Virus record (IMG/VR): IMGVR_UViG_2706794673_000008
Source: a virus
Taxonomy: Duplodnaviria; Heunggongvirae; Uroviricota; Caudoviricetes
Length of the DNA stretch: 4,927 bases
Strand: one strand, 5' to 3'
In this document: positions 126 through 4,850 of the stretch, piece by piece
Position numbering within the stretch: the stretch's first letter is position 1
Layout of the letters: each line of letters begins with the position of its first letter
Notes under the pieces: model-generated
What the model saw: only the letters and a program-made list of their open reading frames with translations
Databases searched by the model: none
What the model was told of the DNA's origin: nothing
Program-made: the position numbers and the translations under genes

Positions 126-132
126 CCAATTT

Positions 133-146
133 TTTACGTACGTAAA
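133..146. promoter_or_regulatory. Perfect 14-bp palindrome TTTACGTACGTAAA, 8 bp from the IS1 end and about 155 bp upstream of the porin start
   Basis: Read directly: positions 133-146 are self-complementary. Function unknown; candidate dimeric-regulator site. Confidence 0.2.
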
Positions 147-214
147 CCACTAAATGATATTTGCGAGAATGCTACCGAGTATTGAAAACACCACTACAAA
201 TACATAAGCAAATC

Positions 215-235
215 CCAACAAATAACCAACAAATA
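215..235 (+). repeat. Tandem direct repeat CCAACAAATA x2 with 11-bp period upstream of porin gene
   Basis: CCAACAAATA at 215-224 and again at 226-235, separated by one A. Spacing of one helical turn, 67-87 bp upstream of ATG 302; resembles response-regulator direct-repeat sites in general architecture only. Confidence 0.3.
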
Positions 236-301
236 GATTAGATGAATATTTATCGCGCAATGACATCATTTTTTAATAATAGTTCAAAAAAAGGGCTCAC
301 G

Positions 302-1384
302 ATGAAAAAATTAACAGTGGCAATTTCTGCTGTAGCTGCATCAGTACTGATGGCGATGTCTGCTCAGGCAGCTGAAATTTATAATAAAGACAGTAACAAG
401 CTGGATCTGTACGGGAAAGTTAATGCTAAGCACTACTTCTCCTCTAATGATGCAGATGATGGTGATACTACTTATGCCCGTCTTGGCTTCAAAGGTGAAA
501 CCCAAATCAACGATCAACTGACTGGTTTCGGTCAGTGGGAATATGAATTCAAAGGCAACCGCGCTGAATCTCAAGGTTCCTCCAAAGATAAAACCCGTCT
601 TGCCTTCGCTGGCCTGAAATTCGGTGACTACGGCTCCATCGATTACGGCCGTAACTACGGTGTAGCATACGACATCGGTGCGTGGACTGACGTCCTGCCA
701 GAATTCGGTGGTGACACTTGGACTCAAACAGATGTGTTCATGACTGGTCGCACCACTGGTGTTGCAACTTATCGTAACAACGACTTCTTTGGTCTGGTTG
801 ATGGTCTGAACTTTGCTGCTCAGTATCAGGGTAAAAATGACCGCACTGACGTAACTGAAGCTAATGGTGATGGTTTCGGTTTCTCCACTACTTATGAGTA
901 TGAAGGATTCGGTGTAGGTGCAACCTATGCTAAATCTGACCGCACTAATAATCAGGTTATCTACGGTAACAACAGCCTGAATGCATCTGGTCAAAATGCT
1001 GAAGTATGGGCAGCTGGTCTGAAATATGATGCGAACAACATCTATCTGGCTACCACCTATTCTGAAACCCAGAACATGACTGTTTTTGGTAATAACCATA
1101 TTGCCAACAAAGCACAAAACTTCGAAGTAGTTGCACAATATCAGTTCGACTTCGGTCTGCGTCCGTCCGTTGCTTACCTGCAATCTAAAGGAAAAGACTT
1201 GGGTGCGTGGGGTGATCAGGACCTGGTTGAATATATTGATGTAGGTGCAACCTATTACTTCAACAAAAATATGTCCACTTTTGTTGATTACAAAATCAAC
1301 CTGATTGATAAGAGCGATTTCACGAAAGCATCTGGCGTTGCTACCGATGATATCGTTGCTGTAGGTATGGTTTACCAGTTCTAA
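302..1384 (+). CDS. nmpC: Prophage-encoded general porin, NmpC/Lc (OmpC/OmpF/PhoE) family, 360 aa, apparently intact
   Basis: ATG 302 with AAGGG at 291-295. Signal peptide [23 protein letters not shown] then mature AEIYNK..., and C-terminal ...AVGMVYQF with terminal Phe typical of beta-barrel porins. Strongly resembles NmpC/Lc lambdoid porins from memory. The ORF-track start at 242 adds 20 non-signal residues and is not favoured. Confidence 0.9.
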
Positions 1385-1399
1385 TTTGATTACTAAAAG

Positions 1400-1455
1400 A
1401 TATGTTGCGGGAGGCTTTGCCTCCCCAACATATAAGTGGCTCCCTCAAGCCACTT
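1400..1455 (+). other. Two adjacent stem-loops in porin 3' UTR
   Basis: ATATGTTGCGGGAGGC / GCCTCCCCAACATAT (about 15-bp stem with one bulge, short loop) followed by AAGTGGCT-CCCTCA-AGCCACTT (8-bp stem). Read directly. Confidence 0.5.
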
Positions 1456-1520
1456 CCTTTAGGAGCACAACCTTGCTTCTAACTATATAAACCTTCTGTT
1501 ATATATTACCCTTTATTTTT

Positions 1521-1545
1521 GGGGGCGTTGCAACGCCCCATTTTT
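1521..1545 (+). terminator. Rho-independent terminator for the porin transcript
   Basis: Perfect GC-rich palindrome GGGGCGTTGCAACGCCCC (1521-1539; 7-bp stem around a TTGCAA centre) followed by ATTTTTAATAATTTTT. On the minus strand the stem is followed by A-rich sequence, so it is not a terminator in that direction. Confidence 0.65.
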
Positions 1546-1572
1546 AATAATTTTTAGTAAACAATTGGCATA

Positions 1573-1956
1573 TTAATTAGAGTTATTAACAACGATATCC
1601 ATCTCTAACCGGATATCTAATGCCATTAACATCCCTTCAATTATGCCCTCAGCCTTCTGTAACCTTTTCCCGATATAACCATCAGAGCAGCAATGCTTAC
1701 CTGCCAGTGACATGAATGTCATACCGACTACATAATAATCTACTAATAAATCGTGCAAATCGCTGTTGTTCTTTTTCAGACGGGCCATGCACCCGCAAAT
1801 AATCATCGCGTCATCGTCACAACATTGCGGGCGAGATTTTACTTTTGAAGTAATTAATCCCTTAAAACCGGCGGCAATGGACGACCAGGTCACATCTTCA
1901 TGATTATTAGCCGCCCACGCTCCCCAACGCTCAAGAACCATCTGAATATCACGCAT
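1573..1956 (-). CDS. quuD: Lambdoid late-gene antiterminator Q (QuuD-like), 127 aa
   Basis: ATG at 1956 with GGAG 7 nt upstream on the minus strand. Protein [24 protein letters not shown]... with Cys-rich CCDDD/CGC/HCC motifs, matching my recollection of DLP12 QuuD. The ORF-track TTG start at 1971 is rejected. Confidence 0.85.
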
Positions 1957-2041
1957 CAACTTACTCCACAAAAATCAGACCAGAACGCCAATTACAAGCA
2001 AAAATCAACAAAACAGTATTAGTTGATTGTTATCTCTGACT

Positions 2042-2182
2042 TCATACTCCTGCTCCTGTCAGGGTTTTGGCGTAATTCTTCAGTATTCGGTAATCGGTCA
2101 AAACAGAACCGGGGAAACGATATAAGCGCAGATGCCCCCAGCGGTGGCGAAGAAGTTCTGCCATATAAAACTCAAACATCAT
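2042..2182 (-). CDS. ylcG: Small nin-region protein YlcG-like, 46 aa
   Basis: ATGATG start at 2182 overlapping the rusA stop (ATGA); translation [46 protein letters not shown]; TGA at 2042-2044. Sits between rusA and Q as in DLP12. Not in the supplied ORF track (below its length cut-off). Confidence 0.6.
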
Positions 2183-2541
2183 TCATTCCCCATTTCGGTG
2201 ATGGTCAGTTCCAGCCTCCCACCTTTGGTAACAGGCATCTTCACAACGCGGTAATCAACGACCTGAGCATCATCCAGCCAGAAACCTGCTTTGGTGAGTG
2301 CGTCAAAAGCGGCTTTTTGCAGATTATCCAGGTCACGGCGACGGCGATCCGGCATGTGGCACTCAATACGGATTTTCACTGGCATAGCCAGGCCGATATC
2401 CAGCATTGCGTTTTTAATGATTCGGGTGACGTTATCGCGGTATGCCTGCCCTTCTGCGCTGATGTGTGTGCGCCCGCGATTATGGCGGTAATAGCGGTTA
2501 TTGCTCGGAGGCCAGGGTAATGTGATGCTGTAGGTATTCAC
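2179..2541 (-). CDS. rusA: Holliday-junction resolvase RusA, 120 aa
   Basis: GTG start at 2541 overlapping the ybcO stop (GTGA). Protein [26 protein letters not shown]...[13 protein letters not shown] matches recalled RusA essentially along its length. Confidence 0.9.
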
Positions 2542-2828
2542 GCCTTAATAACCCCCTCTTTCAGCCAGATAACCTGCGTTCTCGCCATACCTTCCAGCGC
2601 GCATTCTTTTGCATACTCAGCATCGACAAAATATGTGCGGCGGTCGATTTCGTCGTGACAGGCAGAACATGCAATGGTGGCAATCAGGTCTGGCGGTTTG
2701 ATACCGGTACCGCACAATCCAGCCAGCCGGATATGTGCCAGTACTGACGTTTCAGGATTGCCATTACATACGCCAGGGATTCTTACCTGGCATTCCCGAC
2801 CACGCGCTGCTTTTCTCAAATCAGCCAT
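2538..2828 (-). CDS. ybcO: YbcO-like nin-region protein (Cys-rich, putative nuclease, DUF1364-type), 96 aa
   Basis: ATG at 2828 preceded by AGGAGG; protein [37 protein letters not shown]...[11 protein letters not shown]... The ORF-track upstream start at 2867 is a TTG inside ninE and is rejected. Confidence 0.8.
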
Positions 2829-2991
2829 GATTCCTCCTTGCTGCCAGTCGCAACCATTTTTTATCAACCAGGCTAGCGGTATATCCGAGCAGTGTTGGTA
2901 TTTCGGATGGCTTCAGCTCAGGCTTACGCTTACGACGATTTGATACTCTGTAGATGTGCCCGTTCATGACACGAATAAGCGGTGTAGCCAT
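2821..2991 (-). CDS. ninE: NinE-family protein, 56 aa
   Basis: Hand translation of the minus strand: [56 protein letters not shown], stop TGA at 2821-2823. GGAGG upstream; start shares one base with the ybcN stop (TAATG); 8-nt overlap with the ybcO start. Not in the supplied ORF track (below its length cut-off). Confidence 0.75.
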   Translation of the reverse strand: MATPLIRVMNGHIYRVSNRRKRKPELKPSEIPTLLGYTASLVDKKWLRLAARRNHG

Positions 2992-3446
2992 TACGCCTCC
3001 TGCTTATCGCGCAGCTGCTGGTATTCACAGCTCTGCGGAATTGTCAGGTGGCAGCCGATATTCATCGCCCAGGCTTCGACTTTGCACAGGAAGATGTACA
3101 TCTCGCCGGTTTCCAGCTCTGACGTATGGCGGAGGGATTGGACGGTGGTGACCTCGCCGGACACGACATCTACACGGTCTTTGCTTTCGTAGCCGAGATA
3201 GGTGTGCTTCATCGCGTCTTTGACCCACTCAGGCGTAGCGAAGGTCTTGCCGCGGGCGATGAGATATTCGCTGATCTCCGTGTACCACATGTGGCTGAGC
3301 GCGTTCTGCGACAGGCTGCGCTTCTCGCGCCACGGCTTAACCTGCAGGCGTAAGCATTGCCCGGCATCCAGCAATGGCTGAATCTGCTGGCCGATGGCCG
3401 CGAAGTTACCGCGATGGAGTTTGATGCCGTCTACTGGCAGAGTCAT
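2991..3446 (-). CDS. ybcN: YbcN / NinB(Orf)-family recombination protein, 151 aa
   Basis: ATG at 3446 with GGGAGG upstream; contains an RSLSQNALSHMW motif resembling lambda NinB/Orf; position immediately upstream of ninE as in lambdoid nin regions. Confidence 0.85.
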   Translation of the reverse strand: MTLPVDGIKLHRGNFAAIGQQIQPLLDAGQCLRLQVKPWREKRSLSQNALSHMWYTEISEYLIARGKTFATPEWVKDAMKHTYLGYESKDRVDVVSGEVTTVQSLRHTSELETGEMYIFLCKVEAWAMNIGCHLTIPQSCEYQQLRDKQEA

Positions 3447-3538
3447 ACGGCCTCCCTAACGGAAACCGCAGAATGCAGAAAATCGCAGGTGCATTTCTGC
3501 ATCTGTGACAAGGTGATGAGTTCAGATTGTGGTCGCAT
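3443..3538 (-). CDS. 31-aa leader ORF translationally coupled to ybcN (possibly YlcH-like)
   Basis: Minus-strand ATG at 3538 directly after an in-frame TAA, with AAGGGGA upstream; translation MRPQSELITLSQMQKCTCDFLHSAVSVREAV; its TGA overlaps the ybcN ATG (ATGA). Identity with ylcH not verified. Not in the supplied ORF track (below its length cut-off). Confidence 0.35.
   Translation of the reverse strand: MRPQSELITLSQMQKCTCDFLHSAVSVREAV
3473..3502 (-). other. Inverted repeat ATGCAGAAA-N12-TTTCTGCAT inside the leader ORF, just upstream of the ybcN ribosome-binding site
   Basis: Perfect 9-bp arms read directly. On the minus-strand RNA it is followed by moderately U-rich UCUGCGGUUUCC; candidate attenuator or weak terminator. 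Confidence 0.3.
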
Positions 3539-3557
3539 TTAAGTCCCCTTAAATGCG
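3534..3557 (-). promoter_or_regulatory. Stem-loop (10-bp stem, 4-nt loop) enclosing the SD and start codon of the leader ORF
   Basis: CGCATTTAAG-TCCC-CTTAAATGCG on the + strand. On the minus-strand RNA the leader-ORF ATG (3538-3536) lies in the stem and its SD (GGGGA) overlaps the loop. Confidence 0.3.
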
Positions 3558-3594
3558 CAGAAGTCACCGGAGTTGTTCAGGCTCCGATGAGAGG

Positions 3595-3623
3595 ATTATG
3601 GCGGATTGATTACGATAAATCAA
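3595..3623 (-). promoter_or_regulatory. Candidate sigma70 promoter for the minus-strand nin operon
   Basis: Minus-strand -35 TTGATT (3623-3618), 17-bp spacer, -10 CATAAT (3600-3595). Would place a transcription start about 50 bp upstream of the leader ORF. Confidence 0.3.
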
Positions 3624-3645
3624 AACTATCTTGAAGCCAAAACAG

Positions 3646-3674
3646 TGATCTTCGCTTTAAAAACCTTGTATACT
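3646..3674 (+). promoter_or_regulatory. Candidate promoter for the + strand cargo operon (divergent from the nin promoter)
   Basis: -10-like TATACT at 3669-3674 with TG immediately upstream; -35 poorly matched (TGATCT at 3646-3651). Weak call. Confidence 0.2.
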
Positions 3675-3710
3675 TTCACCTAATCACAGCCAGAACTATG
3701 GATCTAACCA

Positions 3711-4088
3711 ATGACCAACAAAGAAAACAAAGATAAATATATTAACAAGTTCAAGAAAGAGCTTTCAAAATATATACAACCAACTGCTGGAGTGGACATT
3801 CAATTATTTAACTCTAAGGATGGTGGTGGTGTAATTAAAGCCACTTTGAATAGAAGTGGAAAAAGAAAATCATCTATTGCTGGTAATTTTACTAAATTAG
3901 GTGAGGCAATTACCTCGAGTGGGCAGAGGGTTTTTGGTGGTGATCTATCAAATGTGAATTTTTACGGAACAAATACGATTTTTGATGGAGATACAATATT
4001 TTTAATTAAATCACCTGATTCAGAGGAGTGGTCATCACAAAAAGCTTCCAAAGACGTAGAGGGCATCGTATTTGGAGGGAAAAAATGA
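3711..4088 (+). CDS. Hypothetical protein, 125 aa, soluble, Lys-rich N-terminus and Gly-rich beta-like core; AT-rich codon usage
   Basis: ATG 3711 to TGA 4086-4088; no signal peptide or TM segment; region is visibly much more AT-rich than the flanking nin genes. No family recognised. Confidence 0.6.
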   Translation: MTNKENKDKYINKFKKELSKYIQPTAGVDIQLFNSKDGGGVIKATLNRSGKRKSSIAGNFTKLGEAITSSGQRVFGGDLSNVNFYGTNTIFDGDTIFLIKSPDSEEWSSQKASKDVEGIVFGGKK

Positions 4089-4132
4089 TTAACATTACTA
4101 CTAAGGATGCACTCAAGTCAGTGGTGAAGTAA
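4085..4132 (+). CDS. 15-codon micro-ORF (MINITTKDALKSVVK) with a strong SD, overlapping the stop of the upstream gene; possibly the true 5' end of the downstream membrane-protein gene broken by a frameshift
   Basis: GGAGGG at 4073-4078, then A6, then ATG 4085 overlapping TGA 4086-4088 (ATGA); stop TAA at 4130-4132. Overlaps the open part of the downstream gene's frame between 4105 and 4129. Confidence 0.25.
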   Translation: MINITTKDALKSVVK

Positions 4133-4170
4133 GAGATCTAGTAATTCTTCTTGAAACTGATGGAAAAACG

Positions 4171-4512
4171 GTGTCTGATTATTTGCAGCCAATCCCTCCC
4201 AAAAAAGATACACACTGGAGCATGATTTTCATTCCGGTAGCAATTTATATACTACTTAATCTTGTATACATTATTGCTCACCCATTATTTCCTGAAAAAT
4301 ATCTAAAAACATCAACATCTATATTTCTATTCATTTCCTTCATATTAAGTGCAATAGTAGCATATTTTGTTTTCCATAAGCATAAATCTGCCACTCGATC
4401 CATATGCAGCTTAGTGTTCTTAGTGTTAATTGTAGGTGCTAACGTAGGGTTTATCAGTTACAGCGACCTAACACAAAAAGCGACGCAAAAATTAGATAGT
4501 TTGTCTAAATAA
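4171..4512 (+). CDS. Hypothetical small integral membrane protein (about 3 TM helices), 113 aa as drawn; start uncertain
   Basis: Three hydrophobic stretches (IFIPVAIYILLNLVYIIAHPLF, IFLFISFILSAIVAYFVF, ICSLVFLVLIVGANVGFISY). The GTG start at 4171 has only a weak SD; alternative in-frame ATG at 4222, or an upstream start at 4085 if a frameshift is assumed. TAA at 4510-4512. Confidence 0.55.
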   Translation: MSDYLQPIPPKKDTHWSMIFIPVAIYILLNLVYIIAHPLFPEKYLKTSTSIFLFISFILSAIVAYFVFHKHKSATRSICSLVFLVLIVGANVGFISYSDLTQKATQKLDSLSK

Positions 4513-4619
4513 TTATGTTGCCATGCGAAGTATGCATGGCTGCATGTCTGCCTTCCATTTAAAATGGGCTAAGACCTATAACCCTAAATATTATTCTTTA
4601 TTATCTTCTTTACCACTTC

Positions 4620-4850
4620 GGTGATGCTGCCAACTTACTGATTTAGTGTATGATGGTGTTTTTGAGGTGCTCCAGTGGCTTCTGTTTCTATCAGCTGTCC
4701 CTCCTGTTCAGCTACTGACGGGGTGGTGCGTAACGGCAAAAGCACTGCCGGACATCAGCGCTATCTCTGCTCTCACTGCCGTAAAACATGGCAACTGCAG
4801 TTCACTTACACCGCTTCTCAACCCGGTACGCACCAGAAAATCATTGATAT
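4620..4850 (+). mobile_element. IS1 left end (left inverted repeat plus 5' part of insA), truncated internally at about 4850
   Basis: GGTGATGCTGCCAACTTACTGATTTAGTGTATGATGG... matches the recalled IS1 left end. Similarity to IS1 stops after ...AAAATCATTGATAT (4850), where IS1 continues GGCCATG but the window continues TGTCAGCGCC. Confidence 0.9.

Follow-up and report, generated by a model that had tools for sequence, protein, structure and literature searches.

A probable portable promoter-plus-leader cassette at the head of the ybcN-rusA gene string in an enterobacterial lambdoid phage sequence

We analysed a stretch of 4,927 nt of viral DNA (IMG/VR record IMGVR_UViG_2706794673_000008, hereafter the window) and conclude, with a probability that we put at roughly 60%, that positions 3444-3623 on its minus strand are one copy of a conserved and portable promoter-plus-leader cassette of enterobacterial lambdoid phages. 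We hold it just as probable that this cassette combines an active promoter with low, gated output and that it heads the genes ybcN-ninE-ybcO-rusA-ylcG, possibly together with quuD. The gene layout and the putative promoter are not new, as the layout is already annotated in the DLP12 prophage of K-12 and the putative promoter in a 1996 phage 82 record; the added value lies in the link between three independent data sets, namely comparative genomics, 5′-end mapping in K-12 and 3′-end mapping in K-12. The leader RNA motif appears to be uncatalogued, and we found no description of a promoter or leader in the literature on ylcH and ybcN.

All genes of the string lie on the minus strand. The leader open reading frame (uORF; 3443-3538, 31 aa, ATG start), which is the counterpart of K-12 ylcH and phage 82 orf33, is followed by ybcN (2991-3446, 151 aa, NinB/Orf family; NCBIfam PRK09741, 261 bits), ninE (2821-2991, 56 aa; NCBIfam NinE, 141 bits), ybcO (2538-2828, 96 aa; Pfam YbcO, 1.6e-42), rusA for a Holliday junction resolvase (2179-2541, 120 aa; Pfam RusA, and NCBIfam at 279 bits), ylcG (2042-2182, 46 aa; NCBIfam YlcG family) and quuD for a Q-type antiterminator (1573-1956, 127 aa; Pfam Phage_antitermQ, 3.5e-53). 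The Pfam scores for ybcN and ninE fell at the threshold for NinB (24.0 against a cut-off of 23.8 bits) and just under it for NinE (23.8 against 25 bits), whereas the NCBIfam subfamily models for both genes scored far over their cut-offs. Protein identity to K-12 was 81% for YbcN, 96% for NinE, YbcO and YlcG, 98% for RusA and 100% for QuuD. Neighboring genes overlap by 4 nt (uORF/ybcN, ATGA), 1 nt (ybcN/ninE, TAATG), 8 nt (ninE/ybcO), 4 nt (ybcO/rusA, GTGA) and 4 nt (rusA/ylcG, ATGA), and quuD is separated from ylcG by an 85-nt gap in which significant structure was absent (z +0.76) and a terminator scan of the window found no terminator-like site. A preliminary description of this DNA had proposed this layout of overlapping genes with quuD as the exception, along with a GTG start for rusA, and our gene calls agree on both counts. 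The geometry of the overlaps suggests that the string may be translationally coupled.

Gene content and order (NinB/Orf, NinE, YbcO, RusA, YlcG, Q) are those of a ninR (P-to-Q) region of the DLP12/phage 82 type. The overlap pattern of K-12 DLP12 ylcH-ybcN-ninE-ybcO-rusA-ylcG-quuD (RefSeq) was identical to that of the window, and phage 82 (orf33-orf151-orf56-orf96-rus-orf45-Q; GenBank X92588, Mahdi et al. 1996) has its genes in the same order. Common to all three are the five overlaps, the GTG of rusA, the hexamers TTGATT-17-CATAAT, a leader hairpin (H1) and a leader ORF that ends on the ybcN start. The window nevertheless carries a different leader allele, with another stem family in its second hairpin (H2) and a uORF that is 31 aa long instead of 33 (48% identity); relative to K-12, the differences lie in the spacer, H2 and the uORF. 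The 85-nt gap of the window has no counterpart in phage 82, where orf45 and Q share 4 nt. Upstream of the -35 the DNA is unrelated, with ybcM in K-12 and a divergent two-ORF insert in the window, and a PADLOC search of the two divergent ORFs found nothing. Gene P is truncated by IS1, unlike in DLP12 and phage 82: homology to the intact prophage ETEC1747 stops at 4620, in the 3′ end of this replication gene, where the left end of IS1 begins. The earlier statement that the upstream phage genes are gone therefore stands. An exact search for the IS1/P junction came back empty across a collection with one genome per species, and coverage of the window by any complete E. coli genome did not exceed 91%. 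The order in the ETEC1747 relative is O, P, insert, ybcN...quuD, porin and essD-rrrD-rzpD.

The -35 hexamer TTGATT (3618..3623, minus strand) and the -10 hexamer CATAAT (3595..3600, minus strand), with a 17-nt spacer, match the sigma-70 consensus (TTGACA/TATAAT) at 9 of 12 positions. A hexamer scan of the window returned 10 such sites against 10.6 ± 2.9 expected from shuffles, so that a bare match is at chance level and support for the promoter rests on comparison and on published K-12 data. Hexamers and spacing are kept among homologues. Of 121 unique homologues, 104 have TTGATT as the -35 and 113 have a spacer of 17 nt; parts of the spacer sequence vary, and the -10 column holds CATAAT (96), TATAAT (9), CATACT (8), AATAAT (5), CAATAT (2) or TATGAT (1), with A2 and T6 retained in all six types. 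The phage 82 record annotated the same hexamers as a putative promoter, with TTGATT as its -35, in 1996, and the comparison with K-12 DLP12 upstream of ybcN that the preliminary description had proposed found the same hexamers and spacing.

Similarity to other phages starts abruptly at the -35, upstream of which the information content is ~0 bits (93 to 121 unique homologues). The module of ~180 nt adjoins 129 different, unrelated upstream contexts in enterobacterial lambdoid phages, and its edge is one of the sharpest mosaic junctions in these phages. In 14 of the 129 contexts an intrinsic terminator abuts the -35. Where the upstream DNA has been replaced, the spacing between H1 and a -10-like hexamer is kept, and in some of these variants the hexamer takes the form TGnTATAAT. 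The cassette stands directly in front of a Q-family antiterminator gene in L175, other copies precede a pyocin/colicin-like cassette and an antirepressor-like gene, and in some phages it is present twice.

Overlapping the -35 and half of the spacer is a palindrome, TTGATT-N6-AATCAA (3606..3623, minus strand), which is a candidate regulator-binding site and the sole TTGAT-N8-ATCAA in the window. In the 121 unique homologues the two arms are conserved around 6 variable bases; variant arms come in pairs (TTGATA with TATCAA), and 8 variants place the palindrome at an 11-bp greater distance from the -10. Searching for additional copies yielded 52 TGAT-N8-ATCA sites where about 27 were expected, none of which made a coherent second site, and no binding protein was identified. 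Compared by eye with consensus sequences, the palindrome did not fit FNR, CRP, IHF, Fis or DnaA sites in spacing or key bases. Its sequence suggests that it may have a regulatory role.

Published RNA ends place a transcript at this promoter in K-12. In the TSS-seq of Kim et al. (2012), performed on TEX-enriched RNA from mid-exponential cells, MG1655 has a primary 5′ end at 571,542(+) in NC_000913.2 (572,319 in.3) with 247 reads, against a dataset mean of 107.8. The TSS sequence listed for it ends in CATAATTATGTCA, the predicted +1, and the end falls exactly on the seventh nucleotide after CATAAT in the K-12 orthologue; the equivalent base in the window is A 3588 (minus strand), the predicted transcription start. 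The sigma70-like promoter named in the preliminary description is thus present and conserved, with a TEX-resistant 5′ end at the predicted base of its K-12 orthologue, and we consider the TTGATT-17-CATAAT promoter very likely to be real. Term-seq tables for MG1655 list 3′ ends at 572,349 (LB OD 2.0) and 572,350 (the third sheet, which by its order corresponds to M63 glucose), which is 5-6 nt past H1 in two of three conditions, and the table for LB OD 0.4 lists no 3′ end after H1. Reads at both ends were about 1,600-1,900, which is low compared with many other ends in the tables. The predicted 3′ end of the resulting RNA of ~31 nt (3588 to 3558) lies in the conserved linker CUUCUG (3558..3563, minus strand), and the linker GACTTCTGCGC is at least 90% invariant among homologues. 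Termination and trimming would look alike in these tables, and since H1 has no proper U-tract the K-12 3′ ends after it may be processing products. By orthology with K-12, the window's strain would be expected to form the same 5′ and 3′ ends.

Folding of the window leader placed H1 (3564..3590, minus strand), with arms TCATCGGAG and CTCCGGTGA around the 9-nt loop CCTGAACAA, at the extreme 5′ end of the RNA. Across its 46 sequence variants the stem of H1 changes in a compensatory way and the loop, yyUGAACAm, is conserved. Its stem is G+C-rich but the tail, UUCUGCGC (UUCUG), has no U-run, and the scan did not call H1 as an intrinsic terminator. The phage 82 record labels H1 a 'possible regulator-binding site' (Mahdi et al.), which would suit a site in double-stranded DNA. 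The second hairpin, H2 (3534..3557, minus strand; CGCATTTAAG-GGGA-CTTAAATGCG), equals 'IR4' of the phi80 record and holds the Shine-Dalgarno sequence of the uORF in its GNRA-type loop and the AUG within its 3′ arm. It was found in 11 variants and about 6 stem families, with the GGGA loop conserved and double changes at 6 of 10 pairs. All 121 leaders formed both hairpins in independent single-sequence folds, and the window leader had an MFE of -56.5 kcal/mol (z -4.84).

A covariance model (R1) of H1, linker, H2 and uORF start matched the window at 3508..3594 (minus strand) with 107.4 bits (E 1.4e-22). A gapped pattern run genome-wide proved too loose, with 72 chance matches among the 80 loci listed; these 72 served as a negative control for the model, which matched only the 8 enterobacterial-type loci among those 80. 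In the covariance-model alignment 97.5% of cells were paired as against 82.8% in shuffles (0 of 500 reached it), a statistic that overstates independence because covariation was counted on a structure-fitted alignment of phages related by recombination. Double changes were present at 14 of the 20 pairs, and slid partners were only 25-47% paired. RNAalifold on a MAFFT alignment recovered H1 and missed H2, since MAFFT misaligned the stem families, and alignment to the covariance model instead resolved H2. A compact RNA motif with strong covariation is thereby defined; a search of Rfam 15 gave no family match in the window at E <= 1. The gene for Q, the activator of the late genes, follows within a few genes of the motif (immediately in L175), so the motif may affect how far cryptic and intact prophages silence or leak their early and late genes. 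Further downstream, H3 (3472-3503) showed one-sided changes only, as its 5′ arm had been fixed by the search anchor.

An open uORF is present in every one of the 118 unique elements. It spans 31-38 codons in all except one (46 codons), and in 115 it ends in ATGA or GTGA on the start of the next gene; in the window its stop overlaps the ybcN start as ATGA. Searches of Pfam, PHROG and NCBIfam assigned it no family. In the fold, a hairpin that is suggestive only, H4 (3446..3470, minus strand), pairs the ybcN Shine-Dalgarno sequence (GGGAGG) with an upstream anti-Shine-Dalgarno sequence within the uORF, and an equivalent hairpin arises in each of the three sequence types found for this segment. 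The ybcN Shine-Dalgarno sequence was at least 75% paired in 83 of 86 cases, with shuffled controls similar. The arrangement suggests that ybcN may be coupled to translation of the uORF.

We suggest the following explanation for the cassette. Sigma-70 RNA polymerase would use TTGATT-17-CATAAT and start at A 3588, and the first RNA nucleotides would fold into H1. Part of the transcripts would stop 5-6 nt after H1, by weak termination or by trimming back, and yield the RNA of ~31 nt. Read-through RNA would carry H2, with the uORF Shine-Dalgarno sequence exposed in the GGGA loop and the AUG buried. Translation of the uORF would then open H4, which would otherwise mask the ybcN ribosome-binding site, and would terminate on the ybcN start codon, from where translation could continue across each overlap of 1-8 nt until it reaches ylcG. 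The net result would be an active promoter whose output is low and gated. Couplings of an upstream ORF or of overlapping genes are familiar from mok/hok and from many phage and ribosomal-protein operons, and the cassette would resemble them in its uORF stop on the next start, its ribosome-binding site in a hairpin inside the uORF and its chain of overlaps. Attenuation at H1 would be one step of this scheme, with a share of short RNA detectable in K-12, and may explain why rusA is poorly expressed. Against this scheme stands the danger that a constitutive promoter lying so close ahead of Q, immediately so in L175, should pose to a lysogen unless strong attenuation or repression keeps it in check. 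The explanation gives no account of the conserved H1 loop or of the palindrome.

In K-12, rusA is poorly expressed without IS insertions, and IS2 or IS10 upstream activate it (PMC10956419; PMC4118853), which is the background that the preliminary description had given. Low, gated output fits this behavior, in that the K-12 promoter fires and rusA still needs IS insertions or the regulator HusR. Two expectations of the preliminary description need correcting. The local promoter had been seen as a stop-gap after loss of the upstream genes; it is instead a conserved component of lambdoid phages that are intact, and the phage 82 record of 1996 already has it as putative. Expression of the operon had been proposed to depend on this promoter, yet in K-12, where the promoter is present and active, rusA expression is still poor; initiation therefore gives no guarantee of operon expression. 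This challenges the usual account in which rusA is silent for want of an active promoter, and it moves the question past initiation.

It is conceivable, although on balance we doubt it, that rusA-ylcG is expressed mainly by a stationary-phase route through the LysR-type regulator HusR (YnfL), with the local promoter minor and at least two transcription units. According to a 2026 paper, HusR activates a rusA-ylcG unit in K-12, with its strongest genomic SELEX peak between ybcO and rusA, boxes CAGGTAAGAATCCCTG and CGGGCGACGTTATCGC in ybcO and rusA, and a HusR-dependent rise of rusA-ylcG mRNA of more than 5-fold in stationary phase (PMC12844172). Both boxes are found in the window, CAGGTAAGAATCCCTG in ybcO as an exact match (2774..2789, minus strand) and CGGGTGACGTTATCGC in rusA with 1 mismatch (2423..2438, plus strand). 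A low-count K-12 TSS (3 reads) that lies where rusA joins the 5′ end of ylcG, upstream of quuD, also speaks for this route. Against it, the exponential-phase K-12 TSS table has no start between ylcH and ylcG, we found no mapped start site in PMC12844172, and HusR bound within a gene could just as well influence RNAs that begin further upstream. Because rusA overlaps ybcO by 4 nt, has a weak Shine-Dalgarno sequence and starts with GTG, its translation appears to depend on that of ybcO. The HusR route and the gated cassette are compatible. In view of the HusR-activated rusA-ylcG unit and its boxes, the seven genes, which the preliminary description had seen as one operon, are probably not a simple single transcription unit.

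A bolder reading, which we regard as unlikely though worth stating, is that the leader is a dedicated RNA device and no passive 5′ UTR, in which a factor (protein or RNA) recognizes H1 with its conserved loop and H2, and toggles between the stop after H1 and read-through to the nin genes and Q. By analogy with pR′-tR′/Q or HK022 put, such a device would be an N-independent gate. It is favored by the loop yyUGAACAm and the linker, which are conserved while the stems covary; by the promoter-proximal 3′ end mapped in K-12; by the placement of the cassette before a Q-family gene, a pyocin/colicin-like cassette and an antirepressor-like gene, with two copies in some phages; and by the palindrome, which keeps the same helical face in two promoter layouts. 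No factor has been identified, however, the palindrome lacks a clear second site, and conservation of the loop could instead reflect some other role, for example in the stability of the RNA or its recognition by an RNase. In lambda, pR′ is followed by the early terminator tR′ (6S RNA, ~194 nt), which Q releases. The cassette shares with pR′-tR′ an active promoter and a promoter-proximal RNA 3′ end that uncouple initiation from downstream expression. Unlike pR′-tR′, it lies upstream of ninB and Q rather than downstream of Q, its short RNA is ~31 nt, its H1 tail is UUCUG and not a U-run, and neither a Q-binding element nor a sigma-dependent pause signal was identified in it. We know of no antiterminator that acts on the cassette. 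The put sites of HK022 are cis-acting antiterminator RNAs with two stem-loops just downstream of pL and pR, and in the cassette, likewise, a promoter of the early region of a lambdoid phage leads straight into two conserved stem-loops; R1 (H1 plus H2) nonetheless had no match anywhere in the complete HK022 genome, put sites included (filters off, E <= 1). The leader also has no Rfam family, and a search of 3444-3623 for a lambda-type nut site found no boxA (CGCTCTTA-like) at up to 1 mismatch. In contrast to a nut boxB, the H1 loop has 9 nt and is not a GNRA-like pentaloop.

Taken further, and at a similarly low probability, the cassette could belong to an as yet uncatalogued family of phage cis-regulatory RNA, a self-promoted, promoter-proximal attenuator that a factor reads as an N-independent gate, and this gate rather than a missing promoter would silence rusA in K-12. 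The elements read by the factor would be the H1 loop yyUGAACAm, the GNRA loop of H2 and the -35 palindrome, and the gate would lead to recombination genes, Q or cargo such as bacteriocin cassettes of enterobacterial lambdoid prophages.

Less plausible still, H1 could be a tR2-type terminator that makes nin and Q N-dependent for pR transcripts, with the block serving as a recombination 'linker' and the operon essentially silent in the IS1-truncated remnant. Lambda tR2 sits between the replication genes and ninB, and the element resembles tR2 and other nin-region terminators in this position and in having a hairpin with RNA 3′ ends. The very sharp mosaic boundary with its 129 upstream contexts, the stable hairpin followed by UUCU with 3′ ends mapped in K-12, and the silence of rusA in K-12 would all agree with such a terminator. 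Unlike tR2, the element has its own promoter (mapped in K-12), a conserved loop, a second hairpin and a predicted coupled uORF, and it has no U-tract. The K-12 TEX-resistant 5′ end, with above-average reads exactly 7 nt after the -10, also argues against this reading, as does the -10-like hexamer that every independent replacement of the upstream DNA has put back at an unchanged distance. Moreover, 14 contexts have a separate strong terminator directly upstream, which would make a second terminator redundant and a restart promoter sensible. Terminator and promoter roles are not mutually exclusive.

It is very improbable that H1 and H2 are double-stranded DNA palindromes for dimeric proteins rather than RNA structures: symmetric changes in a palindrome do look identical to compensatory pairs, and the window's H2 arms ATTTAAG/CTTAAAT are what we take to be the consensus half-sites of the P22 c2 operator, but the arms differ freely from copy to copy (46 versions of H1), pairs of the G-U type, T-G for instance, occur often, the conserved parts are the asymmetric centers (CCTGAACAA and GGGA), a pattern that is typical of RNA and opposite to that of a protein operator, and the K-12 RNA ends bracket H1.

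A preliminary description of this DNA had reported a nin operon of seven genes on the minus strand (a 31-codon leader ORF, ybcN, ninE, ybcO, rusA, ylcG and quuD), translationally coupled through overlaps at every junction except that of quuD. The overlaps are present: the leader ORF and ybcN share 4 nt (ATGA), ybcN and ninE 1 nt (TAATG), ninE and ybcO 8 nt, ybcO and rusA 4 nt (GTGA), and rusA and ylcG 4 nt (ATGA), with an 85-nt gap ahead of quuD and GTG as the start codon of rusA. The geometry is identical from ylcH, the K-12 counterpart of the leader ORF, to quuD in the RefSeq annotation of K-12 DLP12, and it recurs in the phage 82 record, except that Q overlaps orf45 there. Protein identity between the window and K-12 is 96-100% from ninE to quuD but lower for YbcN (81%) and the leader peptide (48%). 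The operon is an ordinary representative of the DLP12/phage-82 nin region, and the finding as first written was already known. Judging from the geometry and from the weak ribosome-binding site and GTG start of rusA, it is reasonable to suppose that translation is coupled along the gene chain. What is new here is a conserved, uncatalogued promoter-leader RNA module, of which the K-12 copy initiates transcription strongly yet yields an RNA of ~31 nt.

The module, which we call the cassette, comprises the promoter, the leader RNA and the leader ORF (approximately 3623-3444, minus strand). The proposed promoter TTGATT-17-CATAAT does lie at 3623-3595 (minus strand), upstream of the leader ORF (3443-3538, minus strand). 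Taken alone the hexamer pair is unremarkable: one scan counted 10 sites of this kind in the window, and shuffles predict 10.6. The promoter was already annotated in phage 82 (GenBank X92588; Mahdi et al. 1996), where TTGATT at 50-55 is a putative -35, CATAAT at 73-78 a putative -10, and an inverted repeat at 82-110 a "possible regulator-binding site" followed by orf33. The comparison with K-12 DLP12 that had been proposed found no relation upstream of the -35, and similarity starts exactly at TTTGATT. Conservation marks the promoter as one edge of a module.

We performed two exact-pattern scans of IMG/VR, anchored in the first leader hairpin (H1) and in the leader ORF, which found at least 120 loci each. 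Among the matches listed, the information content of 93 unique H1-anchored sequences was ~0 bits upstream of the T before TTGATT and near 2 bits from that T onwards. Likewise among the matches listed, the -35 column was TTGATT in 104 of 121 unique elements, the spacer was 17 nt in 113 of 121, and the -10 column read CATAAT in 96, TATAAT in 9, CATACT in 8, AATAAT in 5, CAATAT in 2 and TATGAT in 1. Leader-anchored elements carry quite different DNA upstream of H1, with a -10-like hexamer kept at the same distance; eight of those among the matches listed have a perfect extended -10, TGTTATAAT or TGCTATAAT. The distinct upstream contexts number at least 129, and 14 of these have a strong intrinsic terminator (GGCCTCTTCGGAGGCC and a T-run) that stops where the -35 starts, which would be a sensible layout if transcription restarts at the cassette promoter. 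In the viral contig L110, at least 10 tandem copies of GTTTGATT, the octamer of the -35 region, precede the element at 4617-4703 (minus strand) by ~80 nt.

Support for the promoter comes from terminator-exonuclease-resistant RNA 5′ ends of mid-exponential MG1655 in glucose M9 (Kim et al. 2012, PLoS Genet 8:e1002867, Table S1). In that table, ylcH is given a start at 571,542 (+) that has 247 reads, a 49-nt 5′ UTR and a sequence ending ...TTTTGATTTTGGGAAATCAACACGGCATAATTATGTCA. The 3,746 sites average 107.8 reads, with 267 for talB and 192 for carA; the ybcM start has 2 reads and the quuD start, at the ylcG 5′ end, has 3. Position 571,542 is 572,319 in current coordinates and is the same A, 7 nt after CATAAT, that we had predicted as +1 before looking it up; the equivalent A in the window is 3588. 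With this mapped start and with hexamers and spacing shared, the promoter call is well supported for the K-12 orthologue, and from the shared sequence we infer it for the window strain.

The leader is a structured RNA. Folding placed two hairpins, H1 and H2, downstream of the -10 in all 121 unique leaders among the matches listed. H1 (3590-3564, minus strand) occurs in 46 sequence variants with a conserved loop, yyUGAACAm, on stems that vary widely (GTCATCGGAG/CTCCGGTGAC, GTCGCAGTCGG/CCGGTTGCGAC and GCTGATGG/CCATTGGT, with CTGCCAGCGG/CCCTGGCAG in phi80). H2 (3557-3534, minus strand) has 11 variants in ~6 stem families and a conserved GGGA loop; it holds the Shine-Dalgarno sequence of the leader ORF in the loop and the AUG in the 3′ arm. 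For the window leader (3590-3435) the folding energy is -56.5 kcal/mol (z = -4.84), and Rfam 15 has no family at the leader. A covariance model, R1, covering H1, the linker between the hairpins, H2 and the leader ORF start, was trained on 47 sequences and gave 95 matches in 88 sources. In the R1 alignment, 14 of 20 pairs show changes on both sides, and standard pairs fill 97.5% of cells compared with 82.8% in shuffles, none of 500 of which attains 97.5%, a figure that is generous, given related sequences and an alignment made to fit the structure. When partners are slid by 1-3 columns, pairing falls to 25-47%, and these slid controls and single-sequence folds agree with the R1 pairing result. 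R1 had no match among 72 chance-pattern loci. In contigs from one genome per species, 8 loci were found among the matches listed, of which 7 are from Enterobacteriaceae (two in Enterobacter and one each in Lelliottia, Huaxiibacter, Citrobacter, Trabulsiella and Escherichia). The eighth, L239 (344-430), is a perfect-scoring copy on a 1,115-nt contig labelled as an assembly of the actinobacterium "Kocuria sabuli" and is likely contamination of that assembly.

Several further features of the leader were observed. A 23-nt stretch in the leader ORF, CACAGATGCAGAAATGCACCTGC, has nucleotides that are nearly invariant across otherwise divergent alleles; it can pair either with the downstream UUUCUGCAU, forming hairpin H3 (3472-3503, minus strand), or with the conserved H1-H2 linker UUCUGCG, and these predicted pairings may be alternative structures. 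In one variant, L115 (5685-5771, plus strand), the H2 loop is TCCC instead of GGGA, so the Shine-Dalgarno sequence is lost, and a strong intrinsic terminator (AAACCCGCTTCGGCGGGTTTTTTT) follows ~45 nt past the leader; together they would make a free-standing RNA of ~115 nt. The H2 arms of the window allele (3534-3557, minus strand), ATTTAAG-N4-CTTAAAT, presumably match the half-site consensus of the operator bound by the c2 repressor of phage P22. This match is probably a coincidence, since the arms of other alleles are unrelated.

All 118 unique elements among the matches listed keep the leader ORF open, at 31-38 codons in 117 and 46 in the other; ORF types differ in length by multiples of three. 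In 115 of the 118, the ORF stop and the start codon of the gene that follows overlap (ATGA in 78, GTGA in 37); this following gene is nearly always a NinB/Orf subtype, of several kinds (151, 149 or 145 aa). The Shine-Dalgarno sequence of the next gene sits within the last codons of the leader ORF. In a hairpin predicted at 3470-3446 (H4), it pairs with an upstream CCUC-like stretch in 3 of 3 sequence types, which is only suggestive because shuffle controls gave similar results.

We considered how this promoter relates to the expression of rusA. As the preliminary description had noted, K-12 rusA is poorly expressed and is turned on by insertions of IS2 or IS10 upstream (PMC10956419), and Curtis et al. 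concluded that insertions bringing an active promoter were required at the locus (PMC4118853). In contrast, the 5′-end signal of the K-12 cassette promoter is above average. Term-seq of MG1655 (Adams et al. 2021, eLife 10:e62438) reports RNA 3′ ends at 572,349 (+) in LB at OD 2.0 (1,585 reads) and at 572,350 (+) in what is M63 glucose by sheet order (1,859 reads), flanked by ...CTCCGGTGACTTCTG|CGCTAAACGG and 19 nt ahead of the ylcH start. These ends fall 5-6 nt past H1 and 31-32 nt past the mapped start, indicating that a short RNA of H1 plus UUCUG accumulates. They lie in the linker GACUUCUGCGC, which is almost invariant, and K-12 predicts an equivalent window RNA with ends at 3588 and 3558. 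The short RNA would arise by weak termination at H1 or by trimming of longer RNAs as far as H1; our scan did not call H1 terminator-like and its tail is not a U-run. Under termination or trimming, the cassette promoter initiates without matching expression of the operon, which reconciles the K-12 promoter signal with the silence of rusA. The promoter-leader module thereby offers a concrete, testable explanation for that long-noted silence. During 1,200 days of stationary-phase evolution an IS2 insertion in K-12 ybcN was fixed in one lineage (PMC7858067), reminiscent of rus-1, an IS2 insertion by which rusA is activated.

For rusA, a further route of expression has been published. The LysR-type regulator HusR (YnfL) has its strongest genomic SELEX peak between ybcO and rusA, and rusA-ylcG mRNA rises >5-fold in stationary phase in a HusR-dependent manner (PMC12844172, 2026). 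The window carries both boxes, an exact match to the published K-12 box in ybcO (2774-2789, minus strand) and one with a single mismatch in rusA (2423-2438, plus strand). The "seven-gene operon" is therefore unlikely to form one simple transcription unit. Folding and a scan found no significant structure and no terminator in the 85-nt gap ahead of quuD, so read-through from ylcG into quuD is possible. Overall, the observation in the preliminary description is confirmed and its interpretation is supported only in part.

By analogy, the cassette may be likened to a promoter-proximal attenuator with a coupled upstream ORF. Lambda pR′-tR′ is similar in that initiation and expression downstream are uncoupled, and HK022 put in that two stem-loops come directly after the promoter, but the cassette belongs to neither family. 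Membership in the put family was rejected as R1 had no match in the HK022 genome. No boxA was found in the cassette and no Q-binding element was identified in it. It occupies the place that tR2 has in lambda.

Some phage contigs (L175, L083, L076, L025, L181 and L022) hold two cassette copies 2-4 kb apart. In L175 (6847-6936 and 10950-11039), one copy lies directly ahead of a Q-family antiterminator gene (Pfam Antiterm, 1.1e-50) and the other precedes a tail-fibre-like gene by ~0.7 kb, with an S-type pyocin/cytotoxic-domain gene coming next. The first of the two copies in L083 (506-593 and 2969-3056) is followed by small ORFs and a P22-antirepressor-like gene. With neighbours this varied, the cassette behaves as a portable unit of promoter and leader. 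Overlapping the -35 is a palindrome, TTGATT-N6-AATCAA. Its arms vary symmetrically (TTGATA with TATCAA), and in extended -10 variants it is shifted 11 bp, one helical turn, further upstream. The symmetric changes and the shift suggest a candidate site for a bound regulator; a second site and a candidate binding protein were sought, and neither was found.

In the window lies a remnant, 4.5 kb long, of a lambdoid prophage like DLP12 and phage 82. Of the complete E. coli genomes, ETEC1747 is closest to it (99.4% identity over 126-4620) and has an apparently complete prophage in the order repressor region, O, P, two divergent ORFs, ybcN to quuD, porin, essD-rrrD-rzpD and head genes. The upstream phage genes are gone, as had been stated: beyond the last ~30 nt of P, IS1 replaces everything in the window. 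Upstream of the leader and divergent from the nin genes are two plus-strand ORFs to which no function was assigned (3711-4088 and 4085-4512), which match phrog_18061 and phrog_16940 (function unknown) and had no match in PADLOC. The ETEC1747 version of the second ORF encodes 142 aa and shares ATGA with the first; in the window this second ORF is probably a pseudogene, because a 1-nt deletion near 4108 shifts the frame. An intact OmpC-family porin gene of 360 aa (302-1384, plus strand; Pfam Porin_1, 3e-153) corresponds in position to nmpC of K-12 DLP12, which is interrupted by IS5. The right end of IS1 lies at 1-125 and the left end begins at 4620; both have the same orientation, giving a composite-transposon-like layout around the porin gene and the nin/rusA/quuD genes. 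The right-hand IS1 spans 4620-4849 and is broken at ~4849, where a different repeated sequence takes over, one that ~2,500 E. coli genomes carry, most often on plasmids.
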